Below, piece after piece: positions 33,496-64,000 of a stretch of 64,000 bases of DNA. The stretch covers positions 2,656,001 to 2,720,000 of the forward strand of contig OZ001293.3 in assembly GCA_963921275.4 (NCBI GenBank). Direction: 5' to 3'. The translations under genes and the position numbers were made by a program. Below the pieces are notes generated by a model, which saw only the letters and a program-made list of their open reading frames with translations, did no database searches and was not told where the DNA came from. This DNA comes from an uncultured Hormoscilla sp. Its GTDB lineage: Bacteria; Cyanobacteriota; Cyanobacteriia; Cyanobacteriales; Desertifilaceae. Every line of letters starts with the position of its first letter. Position 1 is the stretch's first letter.

Positions 33496-33963
33496 TTATA
33501 AATCCGATGGAATAATCGCATCGATCGCTTCAGTCCGATTTTTCCGGTAAATGCGAAAATCCCGATCTAATGTTAACACTGTACTGCCTGCGATAGACTG
33601 TATCCCTCGGGAGCGCTATTCGCACTACTCGGGGGATACAGCTCACTCATTCGCACCAAACAAGCATCTGCAAAACCACATGGGCACAGATTTGTATTTT
33701 TGCATCAACTCTCTCACGGCGGTCACTTCATCGCTGAAACTAAAAAGAATCTCAATATAACCGTTACTCACTAAACCCATGACTGCATCCTCTCCCCCAT
33801 AAACATTTTTCAGGAGAAAACACGCTTCACTAATAACAGCTTCGCACGTTAACACCGGTTTGGCAATATTTCCCCATTGATTTACTGCCCAATCATGGTA
33901 GCGATCTCTTTTATCTAAAACCGCTACCAACACTCCTGTATCTAGGATAACTTTTCCGATCAT
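33496..33963 (-). pseudogene. PIN toxin, frameshifted, carrying a hairpin insert at 33598-33641
   Basis: VILDTGVLVA; ADACLVRMSE and VLTLDRDFRIYRK lie in other frames. Confidence 0.85.
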
Positions 33964-34222
33964 ATCGCCTTATATCCTTTCTTTAGCTCCTGTTTTTCCA
34001 TAGACAGATCGCCTACGCCGCTATCTAAACAACCGATAAACTCCTTTGCTACTTCCAGCATCGATCGGGACTTCTCCTTCATCTTCTACAGTTTCCCTAA
34101 TTTCCTGCTTTTGCGTCTTAAACTGCAAAAATTAAATTATTACCAGAACCGACTGCTGCTGTTGAGTGGTCAAGGTTTGCTTGTTCTAAAATCCTTTGTT
34201 CCTTGCTAACTGCTTGTATCAT
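33960..34222 (-). pseudogene. Degraded antitoxin
   Basis: S.LEVAKEFIGCLDSGVGDLS...LKGY remnant directly upstream of the PIN gene. Confidence 0.6.
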
Positions 34223-34290
34223 CTTTTTCCTTCAGTTACACTCTTACTCCCACTCCAATAGCTTAGCATACTTTGGCGCAACACGATCGC

Positions 34291-34395
34291 CCTTTTATTC
34301 AAACTCTGATGCCCACACATCAACAGCAGAGAATTCCCACCCCGGCAGTAACTCGGGCACCTCTAAAACATCTGCATCTCCTAGCACTATCGTCA
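34291..34395 (-). pseudogene. Uma2 C-terminal remnant
   Basis: LGDADVLEVPELLPGWEF....W tail. Confidence 0.6.
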
Positions 34396-34555
34396 ATGTT
34401 ACATATCATTACAAGTAATACCGAGATGGCGATTTGAAAATTTCGCCCCATCGCACAAGGGAGTATCGAAACGCGATTTATGCTGTATAATGGTATGCAG
34501 TTGAAAGGTTAATGAGTTAAAGTCAGTCAAAGGCAAATGGCGCAGGTGTGAAGTA

Positions 34556-35005
34556 GTGATACCAGAATTCGATGAAAACGGCAATCTACCGCCACCGAAT
34601 AATTTTTGCGAATGGGAAGAGTTGAAAGAGAGATTTGGTACAACTTTTCCCAGACAGCGCCTGATAGATGGTTTGTCTCGGGCAATGGCGAAATTAAAAG
34701 CCGCAGGCTGTAGAATTATTTATATTAATGGCAGTTTTGTCACCAGTAAAGTAAAACCTAAAGACTACGATGCTTGTTGGGAAGACGATGGGGTTACTCT
34801 AGGATATTTGAAGTCCGTCGATCCTGTTTTATATAATTTCACCAGGGGTCGTACCGAGCAAAAAAATATCTACAGGGGATATTTTCTCAGCATCTTACCC
34901 TGCTGATTAAGCTGGTAATTATTACCTAGATTTTTTCCAATTCAATAGTAGAAAAGATATACGCAAAGGAATCATTGCTATCCATTTACAGAGGTGGGAA
35001 TATGA
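34556..35005 (+). pseudogene. DUF6932-like nucleotidyltransferase-fold toxin, frameshifted
   Basis: IPEFDENGNLP, YINGSFVT.K..P.DYD; FFQ...KGI continues out of frame. Confidence 0.65.
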
Positions 35006-35526
35006 TGATTAAAAATGAGCAAGAATATCAGATCACATTAGATTGGTTGCGGCGGTTTGAACAGACAGTAGCTAAATTGGATAGCGATGAAGTCTTGAAA
35101 ACTGACGACCCAACGCGCTGGCAACTTTATCGAGACGCTTATCAGAGTCAAGTTGACGAGTTCAAATATGAAATTGCTGAATATGAAAGGCTGATCAATT
35201 GTGACCAAAAGCAGGTTTTGCAAATCAAAGTTGAGAATTTCAATAAACTGCCATGGGTTTTAATTAAAGCCATTCTGACTGCCAAGATTAGCCAGGAAGA
35301 ATTAGCGGAGACACTGGGAATTTCCTCACAGCGGGTGAAGGAGTATGAAGATACAGATTATCAATTTGCCAGTTTTGGAGAGATGATTGATGTCAGCATC
35401 GCTTTGGGTGTGGAAGTTGAAAAGGCTGTAATGCAGGTTGATTTTGAGGAAATCGAGGAAGTAGCACGTATCGCAAAAAAATGGCAAGAGAAGAAAAGAA
35501 AGAAGGCTATGGCCGCGCCGCGCTGA
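35002..35526 (+). CDS. XRE-type HTH protein (antitoxin-like)
   Basis: MIKNE.EY..T, LIKA....ISQEELA..LG, YE.TDY..AS. Confidence 0.8.
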   Translation: MMIKNEQEYQITLDWLRRFEQTVAKLDSDEVLKTDDPTRWQLYRDAYQSQVDEFKYEIAEYERLINCDQKQVLQIKVENFNKLPWVLIKAILTAKISQEELAETLGISSQRVKEYEDTDYQFASFGEMIDVSIALGVEVEKAVMQVDFEEIEEVARIAKKWQEKKRKKAMAAPR

Positions 35527-35720
35527 GCGATCGCAAACGAGATATTTAAGTTCTGCAGTTCATCTTAACAGGAGGCAGAGCCTCACCGAGACCGTTCCCT
35601 GCCAGAGACAGGGAACGAGATAATAGTTTTAAACTATATTGTTAGTCGGTTTTAACCGACTTTAGCTATTAGCCGGGGGTTTGAACCCCCGGCGGGCTAA
35701 CAGCGAAGTGAAGGAATTTA

Positions 35721-36716: not shown

Positions 36717-37041
36717 GTTAAATCCTCTCTGGTGAAATATTTCAGCTTTTAGATTAACGCCAATTGTGGTAATTCGTCTCTGGACGCGACTGGAAAAATA
36801 GTTACACTTAAAAAGGGATCGACTTGCGCGAAAGAGGCATTGTTGGTGTCATTGGGAGGGGGGATATGGCAGCAGTAAGTCGGTGAGCACAACTGTTAGA
36901 CCCCCGGAAGCAATCTCCTACCCAGCACGTGGAGATTGCTTCGGAGGGTGTTCCTTCAATTATCCCCCCCCCTCGCTCCGGACATATTGGCTGCTGGAGA
37001 TCGCGCAGTTCCTGACAGTTCGCAGTATACTAGCTCAATAG

Positions 37042-38681: not shown

Positions 38682-39464
38682 ATGACACAAACACGAGGTA
38701 ATTCTAGCAGATTAGACCGGATAGAGGCAATATTGGAACGCACTGTGTCTGACCAGGCAGAACTGCGAGGGTCTCTGATCCAGTTAACGAAGCGGGTAGA
38801 TACTCTCACAGATCGGGTAGATACTTTAACCCAACAGGTAACTGTCCTGACCCAGCGGGTAGATACTTTAACAGAACAGGTAACTGTCCTGACCCAGCGG
38901 GTAAATGACCTGACCCAGCGGGTAGATGACCTGACCCAGCGGGTAGATACTTTAACAGAACAAGTAACTGTCCTGACCCAGCGGGTAGATGACCTGACCC
39001 AGCGGGTAGATGACCTGACCCAGCGGGTAGATGACCTGACCCAGCGGGTAGATACTTTAACAGAACAAGTAACTGCCCTGACCCAGCGGGTAGATGACCT
39101 GACCCAGCGGGTAGATGACCTGACCCAGCGGGTAGATACTTTAACAGAACAAGTAACTGCCCTGACCCAGCGGGTAGATACTTTAACAGAACAAGTAACT
39201 GCCCTGACCCAGCGAGTAGATAATATTGTCGGGAAGATGATTCGATTTGAGGAGAAAACAGATAATAGCTTATCTGATTTAAACCAAGGGCAAAAAGAGA
39301 CAGTTGCTCTCATAAGGCAACTTGTTCAGGGACTAGAGCGAATTGAGCAGGGGCAGGCGGAAATGAGGGAAACTCAGGCATCTTTGATAGCAGGGCGAGA
39401 AAGACAGGAGCGGATTTTGGATTACCTGCTGCGGCGCGTCGATGGTGAAAATGCTGACAACTGA
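38682..39464 (+). CDS. Heptad-repeat coiled-coil protein
   Basis: About 21 tandem 21-bp units (LTQRVDD/LTQRVDT/LTEQVTV); RLDRIEA start and QERILDYL end. Confidence 0.8.
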   Translation: MTQTRGNSSRLDRIEAILERTVSDQAELRGSLIQLTKRVDTLTDRVDTLTQQVTVLTQRVDTLTEQVTVLTQRVNDLTQRVDDLTQRVDTLTEQVTVLTQRVDDLTQRVDDLTQRVDDLTQRVDTLTEQVTALTQRVDDLTQRVDDLTQRVDTLTEQVTALTQRVDTLTEQVTALTQRVDNIVGKMIRFEEKTDNSLSDLNQGQKETVALIRQLVQGLERIEQGQAEMRETQASLIAGRERQERILDYLLRRVDGENADN

Positions 39465-39962: not shown

Positions 39963-40034
39963 AATTTTACCCTCACGCTACTTACTATTATCATAACATT
40001 GAGAGAGCAAATTGTGTTCAAAGAGCACGAAAAA

Positions 40035-40712
40035 ATGTCAGATTGGTTATCGAGATTGCAAGCAAAACGGGCGATCGGGGTGATCCGCACTCCCCAACGA
40101 TCTTTGGGAAAACAGTTGGCCCTCTCGATCGCAGATGGGGGAATGCAACTGATTGAAATTACCTGGAATAGCGATCGCCCGGCTGAGTTAATTGCACAAT
40201 TGCGAACAGAATTACCTGCTTGTTTGATTGGTGCGGGCACTCTGTTAACCCCAGAACACCTGCATGGTGCTATTGCGGCGGGGGCGCAATTCCTGTTTAC
40301 TCCTCACACCAATCCTGCTATAATTGAAATAGCTCTTGCTGCTGGAGTACCGATTATTCCCGGGGCCCTTTCTCCTACGGAAATTGTTACTGCTTGGAAT
40401 GCAGGCGCTACCTGTGTGAAGGTTTTTCCAGTTAAATCTGTGGGCAGTGTTAGCTACATTAAAAGTTTACAAGGCCCATTGGGTCAGATTCCTTTGATCC
40501 CTACCGGAGGTGTTACCCTGGATAATGCTAGGGATTTTATTGCCGCCGGGGCGATCGGGGTCGGACTCGGAGGCAGTCTATTTCCTAAAAATCTCGTAGC
40601 AGCACGAGATTGGCAGGCGATCGCCCAAATAACTCGCACCTTCATGCAAAACTTAACCACTTCGATGTCCGACGGGCGCGCTAAAAGCACTACCCGTCGG
40701 ACATCGATCTAA
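40035..40712 (+). CDS. eda: KDPG/KHG aldolase; C-terminus carries a 46-nt hairpin insert
   Basis: IEITW, GAGT, PGALSPTE, VKVFP, PTGGV. Confidence 0.92.
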   Translation: MSDWLSRLQAKRAIGVIRTPQRSLGKQLALSIADGGMQLIEITWNSDRPAELIAQLRTELPACLIGAGTLLTPEHLHGAIAAGAQFLFTPHTNPAIIEIALAAGVPIIPGALSPTEIVTAWNAGATCVKVFPVKSVGSVSYIKSLQGPLGQIPLIPTGGVTLDNARDFIAAGAIGVGLGGSLFPKNLVAARDWQAIAQITRTFMQNLTTSMSDGRAKSTTRRTSI

Positions 40713-40717
40713 AATCT

Positions 40718-41476
40718 ATGCCCATTCTGGCTATTGGCGACATTCACGGTTGTGCCACTGCTTTGGATACCCTGCTGGCAACTGTTAAACCCCAACCTGT
40801 AGATACGATCGTTACCCTGGGAGACTATGTTGATAGGGGACCGAACTCAAAAGGCGTGCTCGATCGCCTGATATCCTTGCACGAAACTGGCAGGTTGGTA
40901 GCTTTACGCGGCAATCACGAACTGGTGATGCTCGACGCAGTATTCAGCAGCCAAAATGAATCCTATTGGCGGATATACGGTGGCGCCGAAACACTCGATT
41001 CTTACTCTGACTATAGAACTGGTCAACTCACAGACATCCCCGCCGCACATTGGCACTTTATCAAAAATATTTGCCGGGACTACTGGGAAAGCGATCGGCA
41101 TTTTTTCGTTCACGCCAACGCCGATCCTCAGAAACCCTTGCATCAGCAATCAGAACAGATGCTATACTGGGAAAAATTCCGCAACCCAGCACCCCACTTC
41201 TCTGGCAAAACTATGGTCTGCGGACATACTAGCCAAAAAAGTGGTAAACCTGTAAATCTCGGTCATGCCATCTGCATCGATACCAGAATTTATGATAACG
41301 GTTGGTTGACTTGTCTGGACGTGACCAGTGGCAAAGTTTGGCAGGCCAATGAACTAGGTCAGCAGCGAACAGCTAGTATTGATGAATTTAAGTCAGCCCA
41401 AGCGCCGTCAGCCCAAGCGCCGTCAGCCCAAGCGCCGTCAGCCCAAGCGCCGTCAGCCCAAGCGCCGTCACCCTAA
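40718..41476 (+). CDS. Metallophosphoesterase (PPP-type Ser/Thr phosphatase-like) with SAQAP x5 tail
   Basis: GDIHG, GDYVDRG, RGNHE, GHT, IDT. Confidence 0.92.
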   Translation: MPILAIGDIHGCATALDTLLATVKPQPVDTIVTLGDYVDRGPNSKGVLDRLISLHETGRLVALRGNHELVMLDAVFSSQNESYWRIYGGAETLDSYSDYRTGQLTDIPAAHWHFIKNICRDYWESDRHFFVHANADPQKPLHQQSEQMLYWEKFRNPAPHFSGKTMVCGHTSQKSGKPVNLGHAICIDTRIYDNGWLTCLDVTSGKVWQANELGQQRTASIDEFKSAQAPSAQAPSAQAPSAQAPSAQAPSP

Positions 41477-41574
41477 AGGGTGCGGCTACACAAACAAAGC
41501 CCGCCTGCGCGGGCTATAATAACCTCGTTCCCACTGGCGACCCCTGGGAACGGGATGCTAGAGGTTCTGCCTCA

Positions 41575-41833: not shown

Positions 41834-42828
41834 ATGTCAAAAATTAAATTTCTGTATGCTTTACCGATCGTCCTGGCAGTGACGCCGCTAGTCACCCTCG
41901 ATTTGACCAGTAGTGACAATGGCGGTAGCTTGGTAAGCACGAACCTGGAAGCTTATGCCAAAAGCAGAGGCGGACGCAGCAGAGGCGGTTCCTTCCGCAG
42001 AAGTTCTCCTCCTTCTCGTTCCGGTCCTCGCAGTTCTGGTTCGGGCAGTTCCGGTTCTGATTACTACAGAAATGATGATTCCGATTACTATCCTACAAGT
42101 CCCATCTATAGGCGGAGGAGATATTACAGTTATTCAACTAGATGGGAATTGTTCTGGTTGTATCTGTTTATATTCGTGGCTGGGATCTTGGGATTGATAT
42201 TATTTATATACCTGTTCCAATGGTTCGTAAATCGCCCCAAATCATCTGTACCTAAAGAACTGGCCAATGATATCGTGACAGTGAGTAAGTTGCAAGTGGC
42301 TGGGGAATGCAAAAGAGGTGCAGTCAGAAATCTCGGAACTGATCCGCAATGCAGATTTATCTAGTTCAGAAGGTCTAGCAGAACAGTTACAAGAGGCGAC
42401 CCTGGTATTGCTGCGAAATTCGGCAAGCTGGACTCACGTTTGCGCTAGTTCCCAGAAGGTCAAGGGTAGGGAAAAAGCGGAAATCATCTTCCAGGAATTC
42501 TCGGTTTCCGAACGCAGCAAGTTTAGTTCGGAAACTCTCTCTAATGTTAATGGTCAAATCAGGGAACGGTCCCTCTGTGAGTCCAGAGTCCGATAAAACA
42601 GCTGATTACATTGTTGTCACCTTGTTAGTAGGGACAGAAGATGATAAACCTCTGTTTGCAGAGGTGAATACATTGGCAGAGTTAGAGTCAGCGTTAAAGC
42701 GGATAGCAGCAACTCCCCCAGACTATCTGCTGACCTTTGAACTGCTGCTCAGTCCTCAAGAAGAGTCTGACTACCTTAGCTACGATGAACTCTTGACTGA
42801 GTACCAAGAGATGAGGCTATTGGTTTAG
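41834..42828 (+). pseudogene. DUF1517 family gene with two frameshifts
   Basis: SRGGRSRGGSF, VSKLQV, LLR....W, ERSKF..ETL.N, YIVVTLLV spread over three ORFs. Confidence 0.8.
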
Positions 42829-45529: not shown

Positions 45530-46309
45530 GACGCTATGGCTTGCGAGACGACCAGTGGGAACGGATCGAACACCTTTTACCTGGTAAAGAGGGTGACCCA
45601 GGCGCTACAGCCAAGAACAATAGATTATTCGTGTTCTGCCGTGTTATATCGATATCGTGCTGGCATTCCCTGGCGGGATTTACCGGAGTGTTTTGGGGAT
45701 TTTCGGGTTGTTCATACCCGCCATACCCGTTGGTCTGAAAAGGGAGTTTGGAAGCAGGTATTCGATGTCTTGGCCTCAGACGCCGATAACGAATACGCCG
45801 CGATTGATGCCACCATCCTGCGTGCCCATCAACGAGCGTGCGGGTGCAAAAAAAAACACCCTCAGATACGTGCGAAACCCAAGCCATAGGCCGTAGTAAA
45901 GGGGGACTATCGACAAAGATTCATGCCACTTGCGATTGCCCAAGGCAATCCCACAGGATTTCATCTTACCCCTGGCCAAGCCCACGACGGGAAAGGCGCT
46001 GACGTGCTATTGGATAAAATCGGTGAGATTGGCGCGCTGCTTGCAGATAAAGCCTATGATGCGGAACAACGTGTGCTCGAGCGCCTGAAAGAGGCGGATT
46101 GGATGGCTGTCATTCCTCCAAAAAGTAACCGCACAGAACACAGAGAATACGATGAAGAAATGTACAAGTGGCGGCATCTAATTGAAAATCTATTCCAAAA
46201 ACTCAAGCAATACAGGGCTCTGGCGACACGCTACGATAAAACGGCTCGCAATTTCTTGGGTGCCATCTACCTCGCGGCAGCTGTAATATGGCTTAATTGA
46301 TGACACGCA
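45439..46309 (+). mobile_element. IS5-family element (IS427-like), transposase fragmented
   Basis: TIR GTGTCATCAAT/ATTGATGACAC; CTAG duplication; [32 protein letters not shown]. Confidence 0.9.
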
Positions 46310-50561: not shown

Positions 50562-50919
50562 AATTCATCCTGAATCTTTTTTCTGACTGACCTGGGAGTT
50601 GCGTTCCCAGAACACTCCTTGATTATAACCTGGCCTGGTTCGATCTGAGTGACGAAGATGCTAATTTTTTTTCCGCCCAGCAGCAGGAAGTTGGATCCAT
50701 TTCCATGCCGACATCGAGTCTCCCCAGCTTTTTGGCGACGGTTGTCCCGTCGATGTCCGACGGGTAGTGCGAGTAGACACGCGAGCGGTCTCTTGGGTAG
50801 TGCGAGTAGCGCGGCCTTCGCGAGACACCTCACCGGGAGGCATCGAGCGCCCGTCGGACATCGAAACCCAGTCAGGGGTCGAAAAAGGGTAAGGTGGGCA
50901 GTACACACCCTACAGGTTG

Positions 50920-52665: not shown

Positions 52666-52762
52666 GTTTGTTGTTGCGCTTTAGCGTTTATTGGTGAATG
52701 GCTGGACATCTACCATCTTACCACTAAGATAAAGGTCATTTAATATCAAGTCGCCACCACCT

Positions 52763-52984
52763 TCTGTGTCCCCCGGGAGCGCTAAAAGCACTACCCGGGA
52801 GAGACAGACCTCACCCTAAAGGGCAAGACTTACCTTCGCCTGGCGGGCTAGATGACAAAATGGAGATGTCCCTGGCATTTAATATAAAGTAGGGTGGACA
52901 TTGCCTAGGCTGTTGATTTTGGTCATTTTTCGGCTCTGTCGGTGTCCCCTGGGAGCGCTAAAAGCACTACCCAGGGGACACCGA
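52763..52984 (+). repeat. Two intergenic 46-nt hairpin elements (52763-52808, 52939-52984)
   Basis: Loop AGCGCTAAAAGCACTA flanked by inverted arms. Confidence 0.85.
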
Positions 52985-53885
52985 TCCCTCACTCCGGGAG
53001 CGTGGGATGGCGCGATCGCCTACAATTCATATAGAGCAATCGATCCACGGTCTCATAACCTTACACAAAAACTGCATGAAGTTTTTTCTGGGGCCATCGA
53101 AGTTCAAGTGTGAACAGCCTACGTGTCACCCGATCCCGGGGCTTCGCCCGACCTTCGAGCGCTAATCAAGTAACTATCGATCCAGAGAACATCTCGACAA
53201 GAGATTGATTTTTTAGCATCTACAAATTTTCTACCTCAGATCCCTAGCAGCTATCAAACAAAAAATTTAAAAGCGTTCCACCGGAGAATAATTAAGGATT
53301 GCAGAATAGGCATTCGATATCCCCCAGAGGGGACGCTCGATGTCTCCGGAGAGCTCGCGCGCTATTCGCACTGCGCATCGCACATCGCGGAGACATCGTA
53401 TTCGCACTACCCCAGAGATATCGAGGCCAGAACTAGAGATAGAATTAAAATTTTCAAGTACCTATTCCGTAATTACCGGAACAACATAGATTAGAAGCTG
53501 AGAAGAAAGCGCGGTTAACCTATGTGATGACATTGCTGCGACGCGGTGTCTCCCGGGGACAGCTCCCAGGAGACACCGCGAAGATATAGCAAGCCGTGCA
53601 GGAGTTGTGCAACCCGTAATTGATAAAAATATTATCCCGTAATGGTTTCAGGGGCGATCCCCCTGACCTGTTGACACAAATGATTTAGGCTAGCTATACT
53701 ATCACTATAGTTCCTCTCTTCAAATCGCCCCGGGCTTGACAAGTAAGGAGTAAAAAGCTACCAACTCTCTTGAGCAACCATTTGAGGATAAGGCTGAATA
53801 GGTAACGTTAAGAGATAAATAACCGGGTCGCTCGATGTCTCGGGGACATCGTACTCGCACTACCCACGAGACGGCTAGTTTTTAA

Positions 53886-54545
53886 TTACTTTCTTTGATT
53901 TTTTCGGGATCTTTTCTTGGATTTTCTTTGTCTCTTTGACATCAAAAACATAAAAACGGCAAAATTGTTCCGTTAGTAACTCATCATTGGCATTATAAAA
54001 TCTATACCACTTATTAACATAATATCCCTCTTATTCGATTTTCCGATCGTAAAAAATCTCATCTTTTATTTCCTTCTTATAATTAGTATGGACTCCCTGA
54101 ATCTACAATACCAATAGTCCATTTTAATCTAACATACCCTGTAGCTTGGCCAGCAACTGTTCGTTTTTTTCTCTAGCGGTAATGTGACTAGCAATCCTAT
54201 ACTCACCTTCTTCCTATACCACACATATTACACCTCCCGTTGAAACGTTCGCCTCAAACTTATCCTCTGTTTCAAATTCAGTAATATCTTCACAAATAAA
54301 TTTTACATCTGAAGAAGCTTTTCTTCGCAATTTCCAGCATTTCAGGAGAAAAATAGACACCAACAATCATTTGCCAGTGAGAGCATTTTTTCCGTAAGTA
54401 GTCCAGTTCCTACACCAATATCTAAAACTTTCCTTCTACCACCGAGCAAGTTATACAAAGTCTTGCTAAGTGCCTCAAAGTCAAAGTATCCGCTTATCAA
54501 TAGGTTGTCATAATATTTTACTATCTCAACGTACTCGTTAATCAT
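53886..54545 (-). pseudogene. Class I SAM methyltransferase, frameshifted
   Basis: VLDIGVGTG motif I; low-GC coding-like DNA continues in other frames. Confidence 0.7.
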
Positions 54546-54753
54546 AAGCTTGTCCTTATCACTTACAATGGTTCAAAACCAACGGCTTTTGAACCGGTAA
54601 ATTTCTGACTTAGACCAAGTCCAGCAGACCTTCTCAAGCTCAACTTCAACTAAAGTTCGGAAGTTATATTCGAGCAAGCCTGGCCAATAATAGCCGCCCT
54701 CCCAATCCTTGTAAGTGATTTAAATCACATTAATAGTGTGACTCTATATACCT

Positions 54754-54880
54754 GAGCCGAGGTCGAGCCGAGGTCGAGCCGAGGTCGAGCCGAGATCGAG
54801 CCGAGATCGAGCTGAGGTCGAGCCAGACCCTCGCCCGAGTCGAGCCATTAGCGAGCCCTAGGCGAGCCGTAGTCGAGCGA
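54754..54880. repeat. 11-bp tandem array (GAGCCGAGGTC), about 11 units degrading rightwards
   Basis: Read directly from the sequence. Confidence 0.9.
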
Positions 54881-55179
54881 TACCCTCCCCTAATGTATCC
54901 AAACGGAGCCGAGTAGAGGGGCATTAGAGCGCGTGCTAAAGCCACATCCTCACCGTACCCTCCCTACCATATATATAACCTCGCCCATGCCGCTGGGGCG
55001 ACAACCGGCACCCCATCCCCCCAAAGGAGTTCCGAGTTCTCTGTTATCAAAATTGCCAAAAATATCAGATAACATCAACCTGTCATAGCGAGACATTCAT
55101 GTAATGATATCAAGATATAGTTCGCCATAGATAAGCGATCGCAATATACAATCAACCTATCAGCATTTACCATAATTCC

Positions 55180-57516
55180 ATGACAACCACCGTACCCTTC
55201 TCCCCCGAAGAAATAGCCGCCGAAGGACTCACATTATCAGAATACGAAGAAATAGTCAAGCGCTTGGGGCGTCATCCCAACAAAGCCGAACTAGGAATGT
55301 TCGGCGTTATGTGGTCGGAACATTGCTGCTACAAGAACTCCAGACCTCTACTCAAGCAGTTTCCCACCACAGGCGATCGGGTACTGGTCGGTCCCGGAGA
55401 AAACGCTGGCGTTGTAGACCTAGGGGACGGACTGCGACTGGCATTTAAGATAGAATCCCACAATCACCCCTCAGCCATAGAACCCTTTCAAGGAGCCGCC
55501 ACAGGCGTAGGCGGCATCCTCAGAGATATCTTTACAATGGGAGCACGCCCGATCGCCCTATTAAACTCCCTGCGCTTCGGTTCCCTAGCAGAGGCCAAAA
55601 CCCGCAGGCTATTCACAGGCGTGGTAGCGGGAATAGCCAGTTACGGTAATTCCGTAGGAGTACCCACAGTAGGGGGCGAAGTCTACTTCGATCCAGCTTA
55701 CTCCGACAATCTCCTGGTTAACGTCATGGCCTTGGGATTAATGGAAACCCCAGAAATAGTGAAATCTGGCGCATCTGGTATCGGCAACCCCGTACTCTAC
55801 GTCGGTTCCACCACCGGACGAGATGGCATGGGCGGTGCTAGCTTTGCCAGTGCCGAACTGACAGATAAATCAGCAGACGATCGCCCCGCCGTACAAGTAG
55901 GGGATCCATTTCTGGAAAAATCCCTCATCGAAGCCTGTCTGGAAGCCTATCATACCGGGGCCGTAGTTGCCGCCCAGGACATGGGAGCAGCTGGCATCAC
56001 CTGTTCCACCTCAGAAATGGCAGCCAAAGGCAATGTCGGCATCGAACTAGACTTAGATAAAATCCCCGTGCGCGAAACAGGCATGGTCCCCTATGAATAT
56101 CTGCTCTCAGAATCACAAGAACGGATGCTATTTGTCGCCCGCCAAGGCCGGGAACGAGAATTAATTGACATTTTCCATCGCTGGGGACTCCATGCCGTCG
56201 TTGCCGGCACAGTCATTTCCGAGCCCATAGTGAGAATTTTATTCCAAGGTGAGATCGCAGCAGAAGTCCCTACATCGGCCTTAGCAGACAATACCCCCAT
56301 TTACGAGCGATCGCTAATCAAAGAACCCCCAGAGTACGCGCAAGCAGCTTGGAAATGGTCGGCGAACAGTCTGCCAACACCAACAGATACCAGCATAGAA
56401 GTTAAGGGAAAGTTTCAGACCTGGAATGAAATTCTGCTCACCCTGCTCTCTACCAGCACCATAGCCTCAAAACGCTGGGTCTATCGCCAATACGACCATC
56501 AAGTGCAGAACAATACAGTCATTTTACCCGGTGGAGCCGATGCTGCTGTCATGCGATTGCGTCCTCAGAACTCCTCCGGAAGCGATTGGCAACGGGGAAT
56601 AGCCGCTACCGTAGATTGTAATAGTCGTTACGTCTATCTCGACCCCTATGAAGGAGCCAAAGCCGTAGTCGCCGAAGCCGCCAGAAACCTCAGCTGTGTC
56701 GGGGCCGAACCTCTAGCAGTCACGGATAATCTGAATTTCGGCAGTCCCGAAAAACCCGTCGGATACTGGCAGCTAGCAGAAGCCTGTCGCGGCATAGCCG
56801 CAGCCTGTCGCGAACTCTCTACCCCCGTGACTGGTGGGAACGTGTCTCTTTACAACGAAACTCTCGACGCCGACGGCAAACCCCAAGCAATTTATCCGAC
56901 TCCAGTTATCGGCATGGTGGGATTAATCCCCGATCTGACCCAGATTTGCGGTCAAGCTTGGCAAGCTGAGGGGGATTTAATTTATCTCCTGGGAGTGGCC
57001 GTACCCAACCAGATCATCAATTTGGGGGCTTCTGAGTACCTAGCAACCATTCATAATGTGGTTGCTGGCAAACCCCCTGCCATAAATTTTGACTTGGAAC
57101 TGCGAGTGCAAGCCGCTTGTCGCGAAGGCATTCATCAAGGTTGGGTAAAATCGGCCCACGATGCTGCTGAAGGCGGGATCGCGATCGCCCTAGCCGAGTC
57201 CTGCATCAGCGGACAGTTCGGGGCTAAAATTAACCTGGGCTTAAACAATTTACTGCCCGGATGGCGTTGGGACGAACTGCTCTTTGGCGAAGGCGGATCC
57301 CGCATCATCCTTTCAGTGCGGTCAGATGATGCTTCAATTTGGGAATCCTATTTAAGGGAGCAGCTAGGTTCTGATTGGCAAAAGCTAGGAGTAGTTACCG
57401 GTGCCGACCAGCCTTTACAGATTTTAACAGCAGATGGGGTTTGTGTAATCGACCTTAAGGTCAAAGACATGGGCGATCGCTACCACAACGCCATCTCACG
57501 CCAACTCCATCCCTAG
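55180..57516 (+). CDS. purL: Phosphoribosylformylglycinamidine synthase subunit PurL
   Basis: [37 protein letters not shown]. Confidence 0.98.
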
Positions 57517-57703
57517 CCTTCCCCTTCTTCATCGGAATTTTACGCTACCCTGAAGAAGGGGATAGTTAAGAAAAGCTTAAAATTAGGATCTCAATTATCT
57601 TTCCCCGTTCGCGCAGCGACTGCCCTGCGATGCCTGGAGGGTAGTGCGAATAGCGCACCCTCCAGGCATCGAGTATCGCCCAATACCGGAGCAAAGTTGT
57701 AGA

Positions 57704-59209
57704 ATGATTGCCAACCATTCCCCCCACGCAGAAGCATCCGACCCTGAGAACAGTAGCGCGACTATAGTCGCGCACTTCGTATCAAACAAGGATAAACCAC
57801 AAGAAGCCTGTGGTGTTTTTGGCATCTACGCCCCAGAGGAAAAAGTTGCCAAACTCGCCTACTTCGGTCTGTATGCCCTACAGCACCGGGGCCAGGAGTC
57901 AGCAGGGATTGCCACCTTCTCGGGAGAAACAGTGCATATCCACAAACATATGGGGCTAGTGTCTCAGGTGTTTAACGAAACTATTCTTAGCCAACTGACT
58001 GGTAGTATAGCTGTAGGTCACGTCCGTTACTCCACCACAGGTTCTTCCCATCTTGCCAATGCCCAGCCAGTTGTAGTAGAAACTCGCTTGGGCTCCCTGA
58101 CGTTAGCACATAACGGGAATATTGTCAATACCAGAGAACTGCGCCAAAAGTTAGAACAGCGCAACTGTAACTTGCTCGCCACCACCGACTCAGAAATGAT
58201 TGCCCACGCGATCGCCTCAGAGGTCAACAGCGGCAAAGAATGGTTAGAAGGAGCTATCAGTGCCTTTGGCAGCTGCCAGGGAGCTTTTAGCTTAGTCATC
58301 GGCACCCCAGCGGGGTTAATGGGAGTGCGCGATCCCAACGGCATTCGTCCCCTGGTAATTGGCATCTTGGAAAATCATCCCCACCGCTACGTACTCGCCT
58401 CGGAAACCTGTGGTCTAGAGATCATTGGAGCCGAATATCTGCGGGATGTCGAACCCGGAGAATTAGTCTGGATTACAGAAGCTGGACTGGCCTCCTTCCA
58501 CTGGACTGGCAAGCCAGATCGAAAGCTCTGTATCTTTGAGATGATTTACTTTGGCCGTCCCGATAGCGTCATGGAAGGTGAAAGCCTCTATAGCTACCGG
58601 ATGCGACTGGGGTGTTATCTAGCCCAAGAAGCCCCTGCTGATGTAGATCTGGTCATCGGCGTTCCCGACTCGGGTATCCCAGCAGCCATTGGCTTTTCCC
58701 AAGAATCTGGCATTCCCTACGCCGAAGGTTTAATCAAAAATCGTTACGTAGGTCGTACCTTCATCCAGCCAACTCAGAAAATGCGGGAAACTGGCATCCG
58801 CATGAAGCTCAACCCCCTCAAAGATGTTCTGGCTGGAAAACGGATCGCGATCGTCGATGACTCGATCGTTCGGGGCAATACCAGTCGCCTCCTGGTCAAA
58901 GCCCTCCGAGAAGCTAGGGCCAAAGAAGTCCACATGCGAGTTTCATCGCCGCCAGTGACTCATCCCTGCTTTTATGGCATCGACACCGACTCTCAAGACC
59001 AGCTGATTGCTGCGACCAAGTCTACAGAACAGATCGAAAGGCAACTTGGCGTTGACTCCCTAGCTTATCTCAACTGGAAAGGAATGCTCAAAGCCACAGG
59101 AGAAGACCCGAATAGCTTCTGTTCTGCCTGCTTCACCGGAGATTACCCGATTACCATACCAGAACCCCTCAAACAGTCCAAGTTAATGCTGGAGACCGTT
59201 AGCCGTTAA
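57704..59209 (+). CDS. purF: Amidophosphoribosyltransferase
   Basis: E.CGVFG, LQHRGQE, GHVRYST, VDDSIVRG, PCFYGID. Confidence 0.97.
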   Translation: MIANHSPHAEASDPENSSATIVAHFVSNKDKPQEACGVFGIYAPEEKVAKLAYFGLYALQHRGQESAGIATFSGETVHIHKHMGLVSQVFNETILSQLTGSIAVGHVRYSTTGSSHLANAQPVVVETRLGSLTLAHNGNIVNTRELRQKLEQRNCNLLATTDSEMIAHAIASEVNSGKEWLEGAISAFGSCQGAFSLVIGTPAGLMGVRDPNGIRPLVIGILENHPHRYVLASETCGLEIIGAEYLRDVEPGELVWITEAGLASFHWTGKPDRKLCIFEMIYFGRPDSVMEGESLYSYRMRLGCYLAQEAPADVDLVIGVPDSGIPAAIGFSQESGIPYAEGLIKNRYVGRTFIQPTQKMRETGIRMKLNPLKDVLAGKRIAIVDDSIVRGNTSRLLVKALREARAKEVHMRVSSPPVTHPCFYGIDTDSQDQLIAATKSTEQIERQLGVDSLAYLNWKGMLKATGEDPNSFCSACFTGDYPITIPEPLKQSKLMLETVSR

Positions 59210-59864
59210 TATCTAGCTGCATCGGACCGAGGTACTTGCTCAAGTAAGGGGAAAAAACCTCATAAATTAGAGTGAGGGGGCGTCCATGATGCCAAAACAG
59301 GTAGTGACGCCCCCAAAACGGTCCTCGCTGTCCAAAAGCACAGTCTAAGGCCGGTTCCTGACCATAGTAAATTCCTTGAACATCTCGATATAACTCGGTC
59401 CGCAGGCGAGCCAGACTTGCCCAAATAGGCAAAGATCGATTCTGCAAATACTCATCTACATGGCTGGCTTCCCACCAAGAAGTAGCATAGGCCAACCGCT
59501 GTCCAGAAGCGGTTCGCAGCCACACTTGACGCCGAAGTCGTGGCCCGGGAACTCTGTGAATTTGCACGGGAGCACCATCTGCATCCATACCAATATGAGA
59601 CATATCGATCACGTCCACCTCAGTTGGTTCGCCCGTGAGCAGTTGCAGGTGGCGTGTCGGGGAACCATCTCCCAGCAGCAGCATTTGCCATGCCGGTGCT
59701 AGCTGGCTATGAGGCAATCCTTGCTGAACGATTTCCTCTCCCCCCTGCCAAAGGGGTGTCAGAGCATGCCATGGGGTGGTTCGATGTCCCTCGGGAGCGC
59801 TAAAAGCACTACCCGAGGGACATCGAAGCGTGACTTGATTGCTGGGTCTAATAATGAAGTACAA
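59199..59864 (-). CDS. Chorismate pyruvate-lyase (DUF98/Ycf21-like); start uncertain
   Basis: LLGDGSPTRHL, RRQVWL, LAYA.SWW, WGRHY, IYEVFSP. Confidence 0.85.
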   Translation of the reverse strand: MYFIIRPSNQVTLRCPSGSAFSAPEGHRTTPWHALTPLWQGGEEIVQQGLPHSQLAPAWQMLLLGDGSPTRHLQLLTGEPTEVDVIDMSHIGMDADGAPVQIHRVPGPRLRRQVWLRTASGQRLAYATSWWEASHVDEYLQNRSLPIWASLARLRTELYRDVQGIYYGQEPALDCAFGQRGPFWGRHYLFWHHGRPLTLIYEVFSPYLSKYLGPMQLDING

Positions 59865-60017: not shown

Positions 60018-60099
60018 TGCGGATGGCGAGACTCGAACTCGCAAGGCTTGCGCCACACGCCCCTCAAACGTGCGCGTATACCAATTCCGCCACATCCGC
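60018..60099 (-). tRNA. tRNA-Leu(GAG)
   Basis: GCGGATGTGGCGGAATTGG...TTGAGGG anticodon loop, long variable arm, GTTCGAGTC T loop; TTGACA-N17-TCTAAT upstream. Confidence 0.95.
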
Positions 60100-60230
60100 T
60101 TGATGTCCCTTGATAGGCATTAGAAACTAGAATATCATGCCTGTCAAGGGATTAAGGGGGAGATAACTAATCTGACTCCCATCTGCGAGATCGAGGGTAA
60201 TCAGTCTATTATACTCTCTACAAGCATAAT

Positions 60231-61101
60231 GGATGGGGTCGAGCCGGGAATCGCTTCCCGACCCTCCCTTTCGGAACCGGACTTGCGATTTTCACCGCAT
60301 CCGGCTACTGGGTACTAGGCCCTTTTCATAGGTAGACTTAATAGGAATTACTTCCGTTAGCCCTTGCCGCCTGTCTTTTCTTCCCTTTCCTGGTTTAGCG
60401 AGTGGTTGTTCTGATAACCGTTAGTATCACCATTTTCAAGTCAGTTTTACCAGTTATCCATACCTTATCCTCCACTTGCGTTTCGGATTAGTTCCGTGGC
60501 TTTTTAGGATTACTCATTCCAGCAGCTTCCTAGTATCACCGACCCACGTCAGCGCTGGCTACCCAGCATCATCTACATTACTGTAGATGTTATCCCAGGA
60601 ATTACCCCGGGCATTCGCTTCTTGGGCCATCCCTCCCCCCGTGGCTTGCGCTTAACATCTAACTTGTCCTGATGGACAGCACACGAGAGGTTACTTCGTT
60701 CCCTAACAACATTTCGCGATACCTTTAGGTCCACACTATACCCCGGGAGCTATTTGAGTACTATATTAGCCAGAGTCTAAAACTAATACTAGCTACCATT
60801 TCCTTTTTAGGCCAGCGCATATAGCCTTATTTCGCTGGTTCCTTATAACGAGGCTTGCACATGTTTGCCTGCTCTAACCTTGGATATCTTTCCTAGCGGC
60901 GTCACCGGCTTAGGCTGCCAGTTATCCTACATTTGAGTCCTCGCTTAGCACCACGATGATGTCGCTTCGTAGCACCGAGGACCGGTGTCACCCCCGTACC
61001 TGGGGGGAGGGGAATTTAACCCCCATGCGGTCAGAGTTCCCGGCTAATGAAACCGGGCTAGCGTTCCGTGTTTGACCACGTTAGGCTAGAACGAATCGCA
61101 C
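60231..61101 (-). mobile_element. ORF-less group II intron (family B, copy 2)
   Basis: 871 nt; about four substitutions versus 22073-22943 seen by eye. Confidence 0.92.
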
Positions 61102-61255
61102 AGACTGATTAAGAGTAAGTCAAGTTATCTTTTACTTGACCGCTTACCAGGAGAGATACCCTGCCAGAGCGTTCGTCTCCTGATTATAGATCGCGATCTT
61201 CCTTCTTGTCCTCTCAAGCTTCTATGCTAACAGATACAGCGCCAAAAGCCCAAAG

Positions 61256-62599
61256 ATGTGTTTTGACAAAGTTCTGATTGCCAACCGAGGAGAAATAGCC
61301 CTCCGCATTCTCCGCAGCTGCGCAGAAATGGGGATTTCCACTGTTGCGGTGTATTCTACGATCGACCAGCACGCCCTTCACGTGCAGCTGGCAGACGAAG
61401 CGGTTTGTATCGGTGAACCTCCGAGCAGCAAAAGTTATCTGAATATTCCCAATATCATTGCCGCCGCCCTGACAACAAATGCTACGGCCATTCATCCGGG
61501 CTACGGCTTTTTAGCAGAAAATGCCAAATTTGCAGAAATTTGTGCCGCTCACCAAATTGCTTTCATTGGTCCAACTGCTACAGCTATCCGGGCGATGGGA
61601 GATAAATCCACCGCTAAGGAAACCATGCAACGAGCCTCTGTACCAACCGTTCCTGGCAGTGAGGGACTGGTGGCAGATGAAACAGCCGCCCTTGCTATCG
61701 CCCAGGAGATTGGCTATCCGGTCATGATTAAAGCTACAGCCGGTGGCGGTGGACGAGGGATGCGCCTGGTGCGGTCTGAAAGTGAACTGGTTAAACTCTG
61801 GCAAGCGGCCCAGGGAGAAGCGGAAGCGGCCTTCGGTAATGCTGGGGTCTATATAGAAAAATTTATCGAGAGCCCCCGCCACATCGAATTTCAAATTCTG
61901 GCCGACAACAATGGGAATGTCATCCACCTGGGAGAACGAGATTGTTCCATCCAGCGGCGTCATCAGAAGCTGTTGGAAGAAGCCCCCAGTCCCGCCCTCA
62001 CCCCAGAACTGCGCTCGAAAATGGGTCAGGCGGCGGCGATCTCGGCCCAGTCCATCAACTACACTGGGGCAGGCACCGTAGAATTTCTCCTGGACAAAAA
62101 TGGCCATTTTTACTTCATGGAGATGAACACCCGCATTCAAGTCGAGCATCCGGTTACGGAAATGATTTGCTCTCTTGATTTGATTGCCGAACAAATCCGG
62201 ATTGCCTCGGGAGAGAACCTACCCCTAACCCAAGAGGAAGTGGTTTTGCGGGGTCATGCGATCGAATGTCGGATCAATGCCGAAGACCCCGATCTCAACT
62301 TCCGTCCCCATCCCGGGCGAATTAGTGGTTATCTGCCTCCCGGTGGCCCCGGCGTCCGCATGGATTCTCACGTCTACACAGATTATGAAATCCCACCGTA
62401 CTATGATTCCTTAATCGGCAAATTAATTGTCTGGGGACATGACCGGTCGGCTGCGATTAAACGGATGAAACGGGCCTTGCGAGAATGTGCCATTACTGGT
62501 ATACCAACCACGATTGCTTTCCATCAAAAGATTCTGGAGACATCAGCATTCAAAGAAGGTGAGGTCTACACCAATTTTGTCGAACAGCACTTCGGCTAG
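61256..62599 (+). CDS. accC: Acetyl-CoA carboxylase biotin carboxylase
   Basis: [36 protein letters not shown]. Confidence 0.98.
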
Positions 62600-62877
62600 T
62601 GCATCATGGTTATTAATCCCTGCTGACCGAGGAGAATTTCTCCCATGAGGGTGAGGATCGCCACCCAAATAATCGGGGTAATGTCTACGCCACCCAAAGG
62701 AGGCACGATTTGGCGCAACGGCACTAACAAGGGTTCCGTAGGCCAAGCAATCAGATTAAAGGGCAAACGATTCAGATTCACCTGAGGATACCAGGTCAGG
62801 ACGATCCGGAAGATGAAGGCAAAGATCATCAGTCCCAGGACTGGACCGAGGACAAGGCTAGCAATGCTCGCAAACAT
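62596..62877 (-). CDS. YggT family membrane protein
   Basis: [24 protein letters not shown]. Confidence 0.92.
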
Positions 62878-62987
62878 GGGTCAATATATGATTGTCAGAT
62901 ATAATCGGGAGTCAAGAAACTGTTCAATATTGTGACAGATGGTTTAAATTAAGATTTAAGCAATTCTAGTGACAGAGGGTGAGGATT

Positions 62988-63107
62988 ATGACTCCTTCGT
63001 TGACAAATTTTTTTTTGAGCCTATTATTGGGGGGCGTGATTGTGGTCATTCCCGTAACGGTGTCGCTGATATTTATCAGCCAAAAGGATAAGATTATTCG
63101 GTCCTAG
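62988..63107 (+). CDS. psbX: Photosystem II protein X
   Basis: Manual translation [39 protein letters not shown]; too short for the ORF track. Confidence 0.93.
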
Positions 63108-63293
63108 ACCAATAGGCACTGAATAACCTTCCTCGTGGGGTCTCGACAGCTGTAGAGATCTGATAGACTGAGGTGGACAAGCGGTAGCTCGGGGTAGTAA
63201 ACTAACGGCAGAACCCGGGAGTTTACTACCCCCGCTGTCAAGTGAGAAGAGACCCAACTGCCACAAAGATAAAACAGGCTGAGGAGAAATGGA

Positions 63294-64000
63294 ATGGTAA
63301 ACATTGGACTGAATCCAGGTGCTATGCTGGGCATTGTCCTGTTTGGGGCAGGGGCTGGGTTATATTTTATGCGATCGGTCCGTCCCGAGTTAGCCCGCGA
63401 TCACGATATATTCTTTATGGCAGTGGCTATACTCAGTGGCGGCATTCTGTTTTTTCAAGGATGGCGGCTGGATCCGATCCTGACTTTCGGTCAGTTCCTG
63501 CTGACGGGATCGGCGATTTTTTTTGCGGTCGAAAGCATTCGTCTGAGAGGGTTAGCTACTTCACAAGCTAAGCGGAATACGCCAATTGTGGATTACGATC
63601 GACCTGTAAGCCGTGTTTATGAGGCGGAACTAGATGACTTTGAACTAGAAGACGATCCGCAGATGACCCGTAGGATGATCGGAACTAGGGAAGGCAGGAA
63701 TACCGGTGTGGACGAATACGATGACGATCTGCCTAGATCGAGCACAACTAGACGTTCGACTTCGAGGTCTCTCGGGAGCGCTACTCGCACTACCCGAGAG
63801 ACCTCGACTCGTACTAGACCAGGTGGTGGTTCAACGGCCAGACGGAGTACTTCGATGTCCGACGGGCGCGCTACTCGCACTACCGGTCGGACATCGACGC
63901 GGCGTCCGCGTCCGACCACAGACCGGAGAATTAGGGATGCTGATGATTGGGAAACACCGAAAGATACTTACGGACGAAGCAGTGAAAATGACTCGCCTAG
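63294..64000 (+). CDS. ycf66: Ycf66 family protein, partial, with two in-frame 46-nt hairpin inserts
   Basis: LYF.R..RPELARDHDIFF, FQGWRLDPIL.FGQ, ESIRLR; open to window end. Confidence 0.9.
   Translation, partial: MVNIGLNPGAMLGIVLFGAGAGLYFMRSVRPELARDHDIFFMAVAILSGGILFFQGWRLDPILTFGQFLLTGSAIFFAVESIRLRGLATSQAKRNTPIVDYDRPVSRVYEAELDDFELEDDPQMTRRMIGTREGRNTGVDEYDDDLPRSSTTRRSTSRSLGSATRTTRETSTRTRPGGGSTARRSTSMSDGRATRTTGRTSTRRPRPTTDRRIRDADDWETPKDTYGRSSENDSP

Follow-up and report, generated by a model that had tools for sequence, protein, structure and literature searches.

Transposition of the IS200/IS605 type relies on hairpin recognition and produces no target duplication; its elements bear a different hairpin at each end as well as a guide sequence for pairing at the cleavage site, and its miniature derivatives insert 3' of a short, fixed target. 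Other systems include the SDRs described by Elhai and colleagues in 2008, which reportedly occur in heterocyst-forming cyanobacteria with units of up to 27 nt and are said to nest copy within copy, and the RPEs, which are about 100-150 bp long. We know of no mobiliser for SDRs and of no transposase identified for RPEs, and the same holds for the element described here. GTAG/CGTC-tagged REPs have a palindromic unit of 20-40 bp (Di Nocera et al. 2013, PMC3733652, in the sections drawn on here), and SDRs are put at "some 20 bp" in a short passage that cites them.

We analyzed a stretch of 64,000 nucleotides (hereafter, the window) from an uncultured Hormoscilla that contains a dispersed set of hairpins with a common loop. 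The best explanation, and one we consider likely, is that these hairpins are mobile DNA elements of Hormoscilla that form one family, non-autonomous and very small, and whose hairpin is probably the feature recognised. On our best reading the element resembles REPs, RPEs and SDRs, and the definition of none of them describes it; since the general phenomenon is already known from these three, the finding extends a known kind and overturns nothing. With SDRs it shares very small size, mobility and a cyanobacterial host, and its copies nest as those of SDRs reportedly do. It differs from them in sequence and host lineage and, as the sequence-only reading had supposed, is longer (45 nt versus about 20-27 nt, the upper figure being the reported one); to our knowledge, neither a fixed-loop, variable-stem design nor a 15-codon size has been described for SDRs. 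Like REPs, in the parts of PMC3733652 and PMC3116915 that bear on this, it is a short dispersed hairpin-forming repeat that is probably non-autonomous and depends on mobilisation in trans; there are also REPs that sit in ORFs and add residues, and several families can share one genome. Unlike REPs as characterized in those parts, which lie mainly outside genes and downstream of ORFs, it measures 45-46 nt rather than 20-40 bp, and five of its eight window copies are genic. Its 16-nt loop is large and fixed, and neither end bears the unpaired GTAG or CGTC tag of REPs (GTAG is seen only on the reverse strand, within the hairpin at the stem-loop junction, GG-GTAG-TGC). No inverted doublets were observed, the flanks of 72 loci holding one extra copy in the same orientation, and no RAYT gene lies in the window. 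RPEs, in the portions of PMC3733652 and PMC3184786 concerned, are likewise palindromic repeats lying in frame within probably functional genes of a host-restricted bacterium, but they belong to another phylum and are unrelated in sequence and size to the element, which is fixed at exactly 15 codons; in-frame insertion is a behaviour that the two share, not a sign of family membership.

The unit is about 45 nt long (45-46 nt) and consists of a 15-nt arm, a 16-nt loop of the form (A/C/T)GCGCTA-NNN-GCACTA and a second 15-nt arm. The arms pair into a stem of 14-15 bp with a conserved TGTC/GACA box (entropy 0.2-0.6 bits) and paired flanks that differ from copy to copy. The loop is asymmetric and fixed across the family, with AGCGCT as a palindrome inside it and possibly a mini-stem of 3 bp; the ends of the element read TCGR.../...YCGA. 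The loop core GCGCTANNNGCACTA has 13 matches in the window at up to two mismatches, nine of them exact, compared to 3.83 +/- 1.91 in shuffled sequence, where none of 100 shuffles reaches 13. All eight copies listed in the sequence-only reading were recovered, the first being better placed at 33598-33642, and with a covariance model built from 80 copies they score 56.6-69.6 bits (E 3e-13 to 7e-17). As single-stranded DNA, the same eight fold at -12.8 to -22.0 kcal/mol (z -4.2 to -9.1), with none of 200 shuffles as stable. Of the five Rfam matches in the window at the gathering score, none coincides with an element.

Three full copies are intergenic. One (52763-52808, + strand, 59.9 bits) lies in an ORF-poor 2.5-kb stretch, with no ORF of at least 80 aa between 52665 and 55180; another (52939-52984, + strand, 69.6 bits) has a perfect 15-bp stem and a DNA fold of -21.3 kcal/mol (z -8.5); the third (57627-57672, 59.4 bits on the - strand), between purL (55180-57516) and purF as named by Pfam, is the only full window copy in - orientation. 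Weaker relatives include a degenerate copy at 24239-24284 (+ strand, 37.1 bits) and a degenerate or compound one at 50783-50831 (- strand, 26 bits), whose 3' extension CCGCTCGCGTGTCTA is common to the 24239 copy and to a further locus, L053. A cluster of rearranged or partial copies occupies 53332-53872 (+ strand), together with a short-loop hairpin (53543-53579, 38 bits).

The initial description, of a family of scattered copies in which the loop is fixed and the stems co-vary, their arms differing between copies yet staying complementary, was borne out by an analysis of 72 distinct copies among the matches listed, comprising 1080 stem cells. Paired cells make up 84.0% of the total; shuffling gives 69.1%, and sliding the partner columns gives 36-50%. 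Cells changed on both sides number 185 versus 65.6 in shuffles. Co-variation is seen at 12 of the 15 pairs, and 35 near-perfect copies carry 33 distinct 5' arms. Conservation peaks in mid-arm, while the outermost and innermost 4 nt of the arms vary and co-vary. The 58 non-Watson-Crick cells include only 8 G.T and 13 A.C or C.A; together with the presence of genic copies in both orientations, the few G.T cells speak for the DNA rather than the RNA level of pairing. About a quarter of the copies are decayed (19/72 with at most 8 of 12 free pairs). A variant with three stem mismatches recurs in identical form at three sites (L041, L056, L059), and perfect pairing is therefore not strictly required for spread. 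Part of the co-variation could come from subfamily amplification or from template-switch correction between arms, instead of selection.

The five genic window copies lie in eda, the chorismate lyase gene, ycf66 (two copies) and a vapC-like PIN gene. In eda (KDPG/KHG aldolase, ORF 39999-40712) the copy at 40662-40707 (+ strand, 63.3 bits) encodes SMSDGRAKSTTRRTS in the C-terminal tail, where the Pfam Aldolase match has ended at residue 211 of 237; the 15 residues are missing from the closest homologs P0001 (95%) and P0002 (93%). The chorismate lyase gene (59199-59864, - strand) carries a copy at 59781-59826 (+ strand, 67.6 bits) that is read in reverse orientation as RCPSGSAFSAPEGHR in the N-terminal region, and this block is missing in nine of nine aligned homologs, including P0241 and P0242 (94% local identity). 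The two ycf66 copies (63762-63807, 68.7 bits, and 63852-63897, 61.6 bits, both + strand) are 90 nt apart, share orientation and frame, and fall in the disordered C-terminal half of the product (gene from 63294 to beyond 63998). Both 15-column blocks are present in the Hormoscilla proteins P0121 and P0122 and absent in the next-closest P0123-P0125, and a maximum-likelihood tree places the insert-bearers on one branch (support 88/89). The proposal that the element adds peptides in frame thus holds for eda, chorismate lyase and ycf66 and fails at 33598-33642 (+ strand, 56.6 bits), where the copy, read in the stop-containing frame, interrupts the PIN gene on the - strand. Its translation runs ...GANE* AVSPE*CE*RSRGIQ SIAGSTVLTLDRDFRIYR..., the original frame resuming after 15 codons, and the upstream ORF covers only positions 1-88 of the 120 in the PIN profile. 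In other Hormoscilla genomes, domain-supported genic copies lie in genes for PEP carboxylase, an HI0933-like flavoprotein, an AMIN-domain protein, a PP-binding protein and an SMC protein.

Each of the four gene cases that could be measured has a net insert of 15 residues, and the PIN gene is interrupted by 15 codons. A gain of 42 nt had been proposed, on the condition that one terminal TCGA comes from the target; because the closest insert-free orthologs differ by exactly 15 residues each time, the gain is instead 45 nt. TCGA does stand at both ends of the copies at 40662, 59781, 63762 and 63852, but this tetranucleotide pairs with itself as the final 4 bp of the stem, and is therefore no evidence of target duplication. 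The palindromic unit measures 46 nt and the net gain 45 nt, and the base at position 46 is close to random (entropy 1.8 bits). The exact ends and the apparent absence of target duplication are based on protein alignments and on paralogous repeat copies.

A rival reading takes the element for an ordinary MITE: a DDE transposase would bind the arms, as terminal inverted repeats, in double-stranded form, and the loop would be mere filler. The arms are indeed inverted repeats with a conserved TGTC/GACA box, a second hairpin family combines the arm box with a different core, as terminal repeats with different cargo would, and the window holds transposase genes of both IS5 and IS982. True terminal repeats, however, are usually most conserved at their tips, and here the tips vary and co-vary around a conserved mid-arm. 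Target duplication is not visible, position 46 being close to random, and the terminal repeats of the window IS982 and IS5 copies have at most a 5-nt GTGTC core in common with the arms. At 45 nt, the element also falls below the 70-300 bp given for bacterial MITEs (PMC3733652, in the section concerned). We regard this explanation as unlikely.

Stops are frequent in two of the six reading frames of the insert, and one of these is closed in every copy (frame R0, in 72/72 Hormoscilla loci among the matches listed). An open frame of at least 199 codons spans the element in 12 of the 72 loci, in frame F0 at six, R1 at four and R2 at two, and in F1 or F2 at none. With a length of 15 codons and frequent stops in just two frames, copies in tolerant gene parts (termini, linkers, disordered regions) therefore persist and add 15 residues, and copies read in the stop-containing frame disrupt the gene. 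That F0 is the commonest genic frame would also suit a host use of the hairpin, as RNA stabiliser or terminator, protein or methylase site, or peptide module, with mobility secondary; the hairpins are stable, the loop has its palindrome and possible mini-stem, and REPs are thought to act as RNA elements (PMC3733652, in the part cited). On the other side, G.U tolerance is not seen, copies occur in both orientations, within coding regions, in a destroyed PIN gene and nested in one another, about a quarter have decayed, and the encoded peptide changes with orientation and frame. Maintenance by host use is, in our judgement, highly unlikely.

The genome scan returned at least 75 loci; among the matches listed, 72 of 75 come from four MAGs of Hormoscilla, cyanobacteria that live in symbiosis with sponges. 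The other three listed matches (Nocardia, Dehalococcoidia, Pseudomonas) lack the arms and were rejected as family members, and all non-chance matches listed fall in Hormoscilla (order Gomontiellales). Presence or absence of the insert differs between close relatives in eda, chorismate lyase and ycf66, and the element is therefore mobile, as had been supposed. A stem variant, GCCGTGTCT..., occurs at five sites with unrelated flanks, and a longer repeat is found with the hairpin at eight loci and without it in the window. Insertion takes place in either orientation. Copies also lie within the loops of other copies and within another repeat family; where copies are nested, every right junction reads ...CATCG|TANNCGCACTACCC and the left one is ragged. 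Regeneration of complementary arms by polymerase or RT copying (fold-back, template-switch or target-primed), which would make selection unnecessary for co-variation, could draw on these junctions, on the separate stem of nearly every near-perfect copy, on one-armed copies (5' arm lost in six, 3' arm in three) and on group II intron remnants in the window, but we consider it highly unlikely, as identical mismatched copies at three sites mean that both arms were copied as they stand, the window contains no RT ORF, gene insertions are clean 15 codons, and the six-versus-three asymmetry is not significant and within chance.

Under the preferred reading of a hairpin-recognised mobile family, a trans-acting enzyme would recognise the folded single-stranded or cruciform hairpin together with its fixed loop; spread would be limited to copies that keep pairing, giving rise to co-variation. 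The absence of a mobiliser from the window, already noted in the sequence-only reading, stands: HUH/RAYT, IS110 and RT genes were looked for and none was found, the transposase genes present are IS982 and a split IS5, and the group II intron remnants have no RT ORF. The most likely enzyme would be an HUH/Y1 transposase (IS200/IS605 or RAYT-like) encoded elsewhere in the genome, which we infer only, because no mobiliser gene lies in the window. Points of likeness to IS200/IS605 elements are the probable hairpin recognition, the lack of apparent target duplication and a weak 5'-flank preference (T at -1 in 31/53 copies, C at -2 in 26/53). In contrast to them, the element is a single hairpin, shows no guide-type covariation of flanks with internal variable positions (maximum MI 0.42 versus a null 95% of 0.46) and no strand clustering (adjacent copies per contig, by hand count among the matches listed, share orientation in 11 cases and oppose in 12), and no TnpA gene was seen in the window. 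A long shot is that the machinery reads only hairpin geometry, the 4-bp stem box and the fixed 16-nt loop, the greater part of the stem being free to vary, with the length tuned to exactly 15 codons in mostly stop-free frames, as in a parasite adapted to coding sequence; in its boldest form, the second arm would be re-templated from the first at each move. If true, re-templating would amount to an as yet undescribed way of transposing, and would explain both why almost all copies have a perfectly paired stem of their own and why nested copies have precise right and ragged left junctions.

By clean ortholog comparison, then, mobile DNA of exactly 15 codons decorates core proteins of metabolism and of the photosynthetic membrane in an uncultured symbiont of sponges, and a toxin gene that is dispensable can be inactivated by it. 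The element offers a ready marker for typing Hormoscilla strains and dating insertions, and it is a likely source of assembly and annotation errors in Hormoscilla MAGs. Its fixed loop and free but paired stem form a defined substrate with which to find the mobilising enzyme.

The second hairpin family of the window, with the arm box GTCT/AGAC in common and a different core, is represented at 19967-20021 (+ strand). This hairpin keeps the frame and lies close to the C-terminal end of a dehydrogenase gene of the Iso_dh family (19894-21057, - strand), read as leuB, and the translation there reads DIMSDF...; a sister copy is found at 21455-21509.

We show that the hairpin element of this stretch is a mobile, non-autonomous unit of 45 nt that inserts in both orientations. 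As an observation, the family is real and was well seen by the sequence-only reading: all eight full copies lie in the window where that reading had placed them, and each consists of a 15-nt arm, a 16-nt loop of the form (A/C/T)GCGCTA-NNN-GCACTA, and a second 15-nt arm complementary to the first. The loop core is matched 13 times in the window at up to two mismatches, nine times exactly, versus 3.83 +/- 1.91 matches in shuffled windows; none of 100 shuffles attained 13. A covariance model, which had been proposed as a check, was trained on 80 copies and applied unfiltered to the entire window. The eight copies reach 56.6-69.6 bits, and beyond them the model finds only degenerate relatives at 24239, 50783, and 53543 and a rearranged cluster at 53.3-53.9 kb. 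Folded as single-stranded DNA, the eight copies reach -12.8 to -22.0 kcal/mol (z-scores of -4.2 to -9.1), and no Rfam family matched at their sites. Seven of the eight are on the plus strand, which is probably chance, given that strands do not cluster along contigs (11 same-strand versus 12 opposite-strand adjacent pairs, counted by hand over the loci among the matches listed). All eight full copies fall in the second half of the window (about 33600-64000), a region of housekeeping genes, compared with one degenerate copy only in the first 33 kb (1-33000), where toxin-antitoxin pairs, IS982, and DUF6603, RTX, and Imm5 genes are found.

Five of the eight copies lie inside genes. In eda (39999-40712), the Pfam aldolase match stops at residue 211 of 237, and the tail, ...NLTT SMSDGRAKSTTRRTS I*, is encoded by the element; the nearest homologs terminate in ...NLTTI (P0001, 95% identity) and ...NLTTSSK (P0002, 93%). 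In the chorismate lyase gene (59199-59864, minus strand), the element is read in reverse and supplies RCPSGSAFSAPEGHR between ...NQVTL and TTPWHAL, at a site that is a 15-column gap in all nine aligned homologs, two of which are 94% identical locally. The ycf66 gene (63294 onwards) carries two element blocks of 15 columns apiece. Two named Hormoscilla orthologs, P0121 and P0122, have both blocks, and the next-closest homologs P0123-P0125, which show 87-93% identity outside the inserts, have neither. In a maximum-likelihood tree built with the insert columns removed, the three insert-bearing sequences lie on one side of a branch with support of 88/89, and a topology that joins the window sequence and P0121 to P0123, which has no insert, is rejected (p-AU 0.015). 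A single ancestral gain is therefore enough to explain the ycf66 inserts, and precise excision, which we had considered, is unnecessary. The copy next to the vapC-like PIN ORF (33643-33963, minus strand) had been taken as intergenic, and proves to be a fifth genic copy that interrupts this ORF. The ORF covers PIN profile positions 1-88 of 120 and meets its stop directly at the element, which contributes 15 codons including two further stops, after which the same frame resumes as SIAGSTVLTLDRDFRIYR... We take this fragment to be the missing C-terminal PIN motif, recognized from the motif in the translation; the 33-residue C-terminal fragment on its own had no match in Pfam.

These comparisons uphold the outline of the earlier interpretation and correct it on two points. 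A net gain of 42 nt had been proposed, with one of the TCGA ends derived from the target. In every measurable case, including four ortholog comparisons with 15 additional residues, the insert adds 15 codons (45 nt), and TCGA is its own reverse complement and forms the outermost 4 bp of the stem rather than a duplicated target. Position 46 of the element is near random (entropy of 1.8 bits). The element survives in genes owing to its length and its open reading frames, and a copy read in the closed frame knocks the gene out.

Among the matches listed, a stop closes the reverse frame that starts its codons from the element's end (R0) in each of the 72 Hormoscilla loci, and an open frame of at least 199 codons crosses the element in 12 of the 72. 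Six of these 12 use F0, the forward frame of the eda and ycf66 inserts, four use R1, the frame of the chorismate lyase insert, and two use R2; F1 and F2 are not used. Pfam searches of 56 frames at E <= 0.001 left 37 without a match. The element-bearing genes with a match encode a PEP carboxylase (L053), an HI0933-like flavoprotein (L063; 182 residues over 161 profile positions), and an SMC protein (L005); in others the element lies in the linker between two AMIN domains (the orthologous loci L009, L025, and L030), in a linker preceding a PP-binding domain (L060), or in the C-terminal tail of a HAD hydrolase (L019) or a pyridine-nucleotide oxidoreductase (L038). The remaining loci look intergenic or situated at ORF ends. 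The inserts are thus concentrated in termini, linkers, and disordered stretches, the pattern expected where selection purges disruptive insertions. For L053, a PDB search with the PEP carboxylase fragment gave no match, and in the alignment of the HI0933-like protein to 4cnj the query is 12 residues longer, without a clean isolated gap.

The genome collection was scanned with a 22-position pattern consisting of the loop plus GGG/CCC, which returned at least 75 loci. Among the matches listed, 72 of 75 are in four Hormoscilla metagenome-assembled genomes (29 in GUM202, 15 in SP12CHS1, 18 in GM7CHS1pb, and 10 in a sediment bin); the other three, from Nocardia, Dehalococcoidia, and Pseudomonas, have no element arms and look like chance matches to the pattern. 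No match to the element was found in the plasmid collection. Ycf66 of the window shares 98% identity with its counterpart in Hormoscilla sp. GM7CHS1pb, so the window derives from a close relative. Hormoscilla is a filamentous cyanobacterial genus of the Gomontiellales, and the H. spongeliae strains with described genomes are, according to the genome paper, persistent symbionts of Dysideidae sponges (PMC6520454).

Across 72 distinct copies among the matches listed, standard pairs fill 84.0% of 1080 stem cells, versus 69.1% in column shuffles and 36-50% when partner columns are slid. Cells altered on both sides number 185 in these 72 copies, versus 65.6 +/- 9.9 in shuffles, a count that kinship between copies raises. 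Co-variation is seen at 12 of 15 stem pairs. Three of the 15 were preset by the search pattern, so that the test effectively concerns 12 pairs. In 35 copies at least 11 of the 12 free pairs are intact, and these copies have 33 different 5' arms. Conservation within the arms is central (TGTC at positions 5-8 and GACA at 39-42, entropy of 0.2-0.6 bits), and positions 1-4 and 9-12 are variable. The 58 non-Watson-Crick cells in 53 well-formed copies include 8 G.T versus 13 A.C/C.A, and hence there is no sign of the wobble tolerance expected of a selected RNA helix; RNA-level selection was rejected, as there is no G.U excess. Arm complementarity looks like a property of the DNA.

Several arrangements bear on how the element spreads. 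One stem variant, GCCGTGTCT...ACACGGC, occurs at five sites with unrelated flanks, and three of the five (L041, L056, and L059) have the identical three stem mismatches; whole units are therefore copied, and perfect pairing is not absolutely required. A longer repeat (...CATGGCCCGCC-[hairpin]-GGGTTCAAACCC...GCTAAAGTCGGTT...) bears the hairpin, with differing stems, in eight loci (L008, L010, L017, L048, L049, L061, L065, and L074), and occurs without it on the minus strand at 35642-35700, 13112-13168, 15057-15113, and 17713-17769. Versions of this repeat (...TCAATTAGTCTCATGGCCCGCC...GGGTTCAAACCC...GCTAAAGTCGGTTGAAAACCGACT...) with and without the 46-nt hairpin differ at one fixed point, and the junction length differs by 45 nt. 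As to the nature of the longer repeat, ARAGORN found no tRNA in the eight loci, and Rfam gave only a weak HEARO match on the opposite strand of L061 (28.5 bits versus a gathering score of 83). Copies also sit within the loops of other copies, with as many as three levels of nesting (L023; further cases are L028/L042, L047/L058, and L020, at positions of about 200-420). The right junction of nested copies is invariably ...CATCG|TANNCGCACTACCC, the latter from the outer loop, and the left junction is ragged, with the outer loop trimmed to a varying extent and 0-4 filler bases. Flanking bias is modest on the 5' side, where 31 of 53 copies have T at -1 and 26 of 53 have C at -2; on the 3' side, C and A at +6 and +7 past position 46 are found in 34 and 40 of 53 copies, which arises partly from nesting. 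Loss of the 5' arm in six cases versus the 3' arm in three is not a significant excess, and the flanks of the 72 loci among the matches listed contain one additional copy only, giving no indication of REPIN-like doublets.

An enzyme probably recognizes the element in its folded hairpin form, taking the fixed loop and the TGTC box as its sequence cues; pairing would then be preserved because unpaired copies cease spreading. An HUH/Y1 enzyme of the IS200/IS605 or RAYT-like type fits as a candidate mobilizer, as it suits the hairpin, the apparently duplication-free insertion, and the 5'-flank bias. The candidate is weakened by the lack of strand clustering, by flank-to-interior (guide-to-target) covariation that does not exceed the null, and by the absence of such a gene from the window. 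The sequence-only reading had noted no mobilizer there, and we likewise found only IS982, a split IS5, and remnants of introns that lack an RT ORF. The arms were also compared with the terminal repeats of IS982 and IS5, and the likeness is limited to GTGTC. Rival explanations of the element are an ordinary MITE, a route in which a polymerase or RT re-templates the sequence, and a function selected by the host.

The element behaves like cyanobacterial SDRs. It falls outside the SDRs, the REPs, and the Rickettsia palindromic elements on size, tag, or host lineage. Its behavior likewise resembles that of REPs within ORFs and of Rickettsia palindromic elements, as portrayed in two papers (PMC3733652, PMC3184786). 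Its unusual features are the fixed loop joined to a free stem, a length of exactly 15 codons, and the asymmetry of the nested junctions. We found no account of this family in the main texts of the literature, and neither "palindrom" nor "insertion" nor "mobile" appears in the main text of the paper on the Hormoscilla genomes (PMC6520454).

The arm box of the element recurs as GCGTCT/AGACACC in a second hairpin family, whose core, about 30 nt long (GC.TGCTCTTGTCCTGAAGGACTCGGCATGC), is different. This family occurs at 19967-20021 (plus strand) and 21455-21509 (minus strand), in the upstream flank of L036, and at 235-292 of L056; this suggests a superfamily with common arms and differing cores. 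One second-family copy is inserted, with the frame preserved, close to the C-terminus of a dehydrogenase gene of the Iso_dh family. We take this gene to be leuB; the copy lengthens its product by about 20 residues.

Signs of gene decay are seen at 42318-42828, 45536-46300, and 52665-55180. A DUF1517 gene lies in two overlapping ORFs and the IS5 transposase in two pieces, and the 2.5-kb stretch at 52665-55180 has no ORF of at least 80 aa and contains rearranged hairpin copies; within it, we think that about 54342-54545 is a putative broken methyltransferase-like ORF.

Other repeats are also present. Matches to group II intron domain V/VI (46-47 bits) occur at 13925-14032 (plus strand) and 60233-60309 (minus strand), and no RT ORF lies close to them. 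One of them falls within a 300-nt repeat whose copies at 22068-22367 and 60226-60525 share 98% identity, the latter copy adjoining tRNA-Leu(GAG) at 60018-60099. Single, dispersed 24-nt matches to the Rfam family CRISPR-DR28 (27756-27779, 41493-41516, and 12769-12792; 36.6 bits, gathering score of 35) do not form a CRISPR array in the window; they belong to a further dispersed repeat, about 50 nt long, which is also found next to hairpins in L031 and L040. A metallophosphatase gene has six tandem 15-nt units at its 3' end (41377-41476) and an (SAQAP)n C-terminus, and a coiled-coil ORF at 38749-39294 is mostly a 21-nt periodic repeat.
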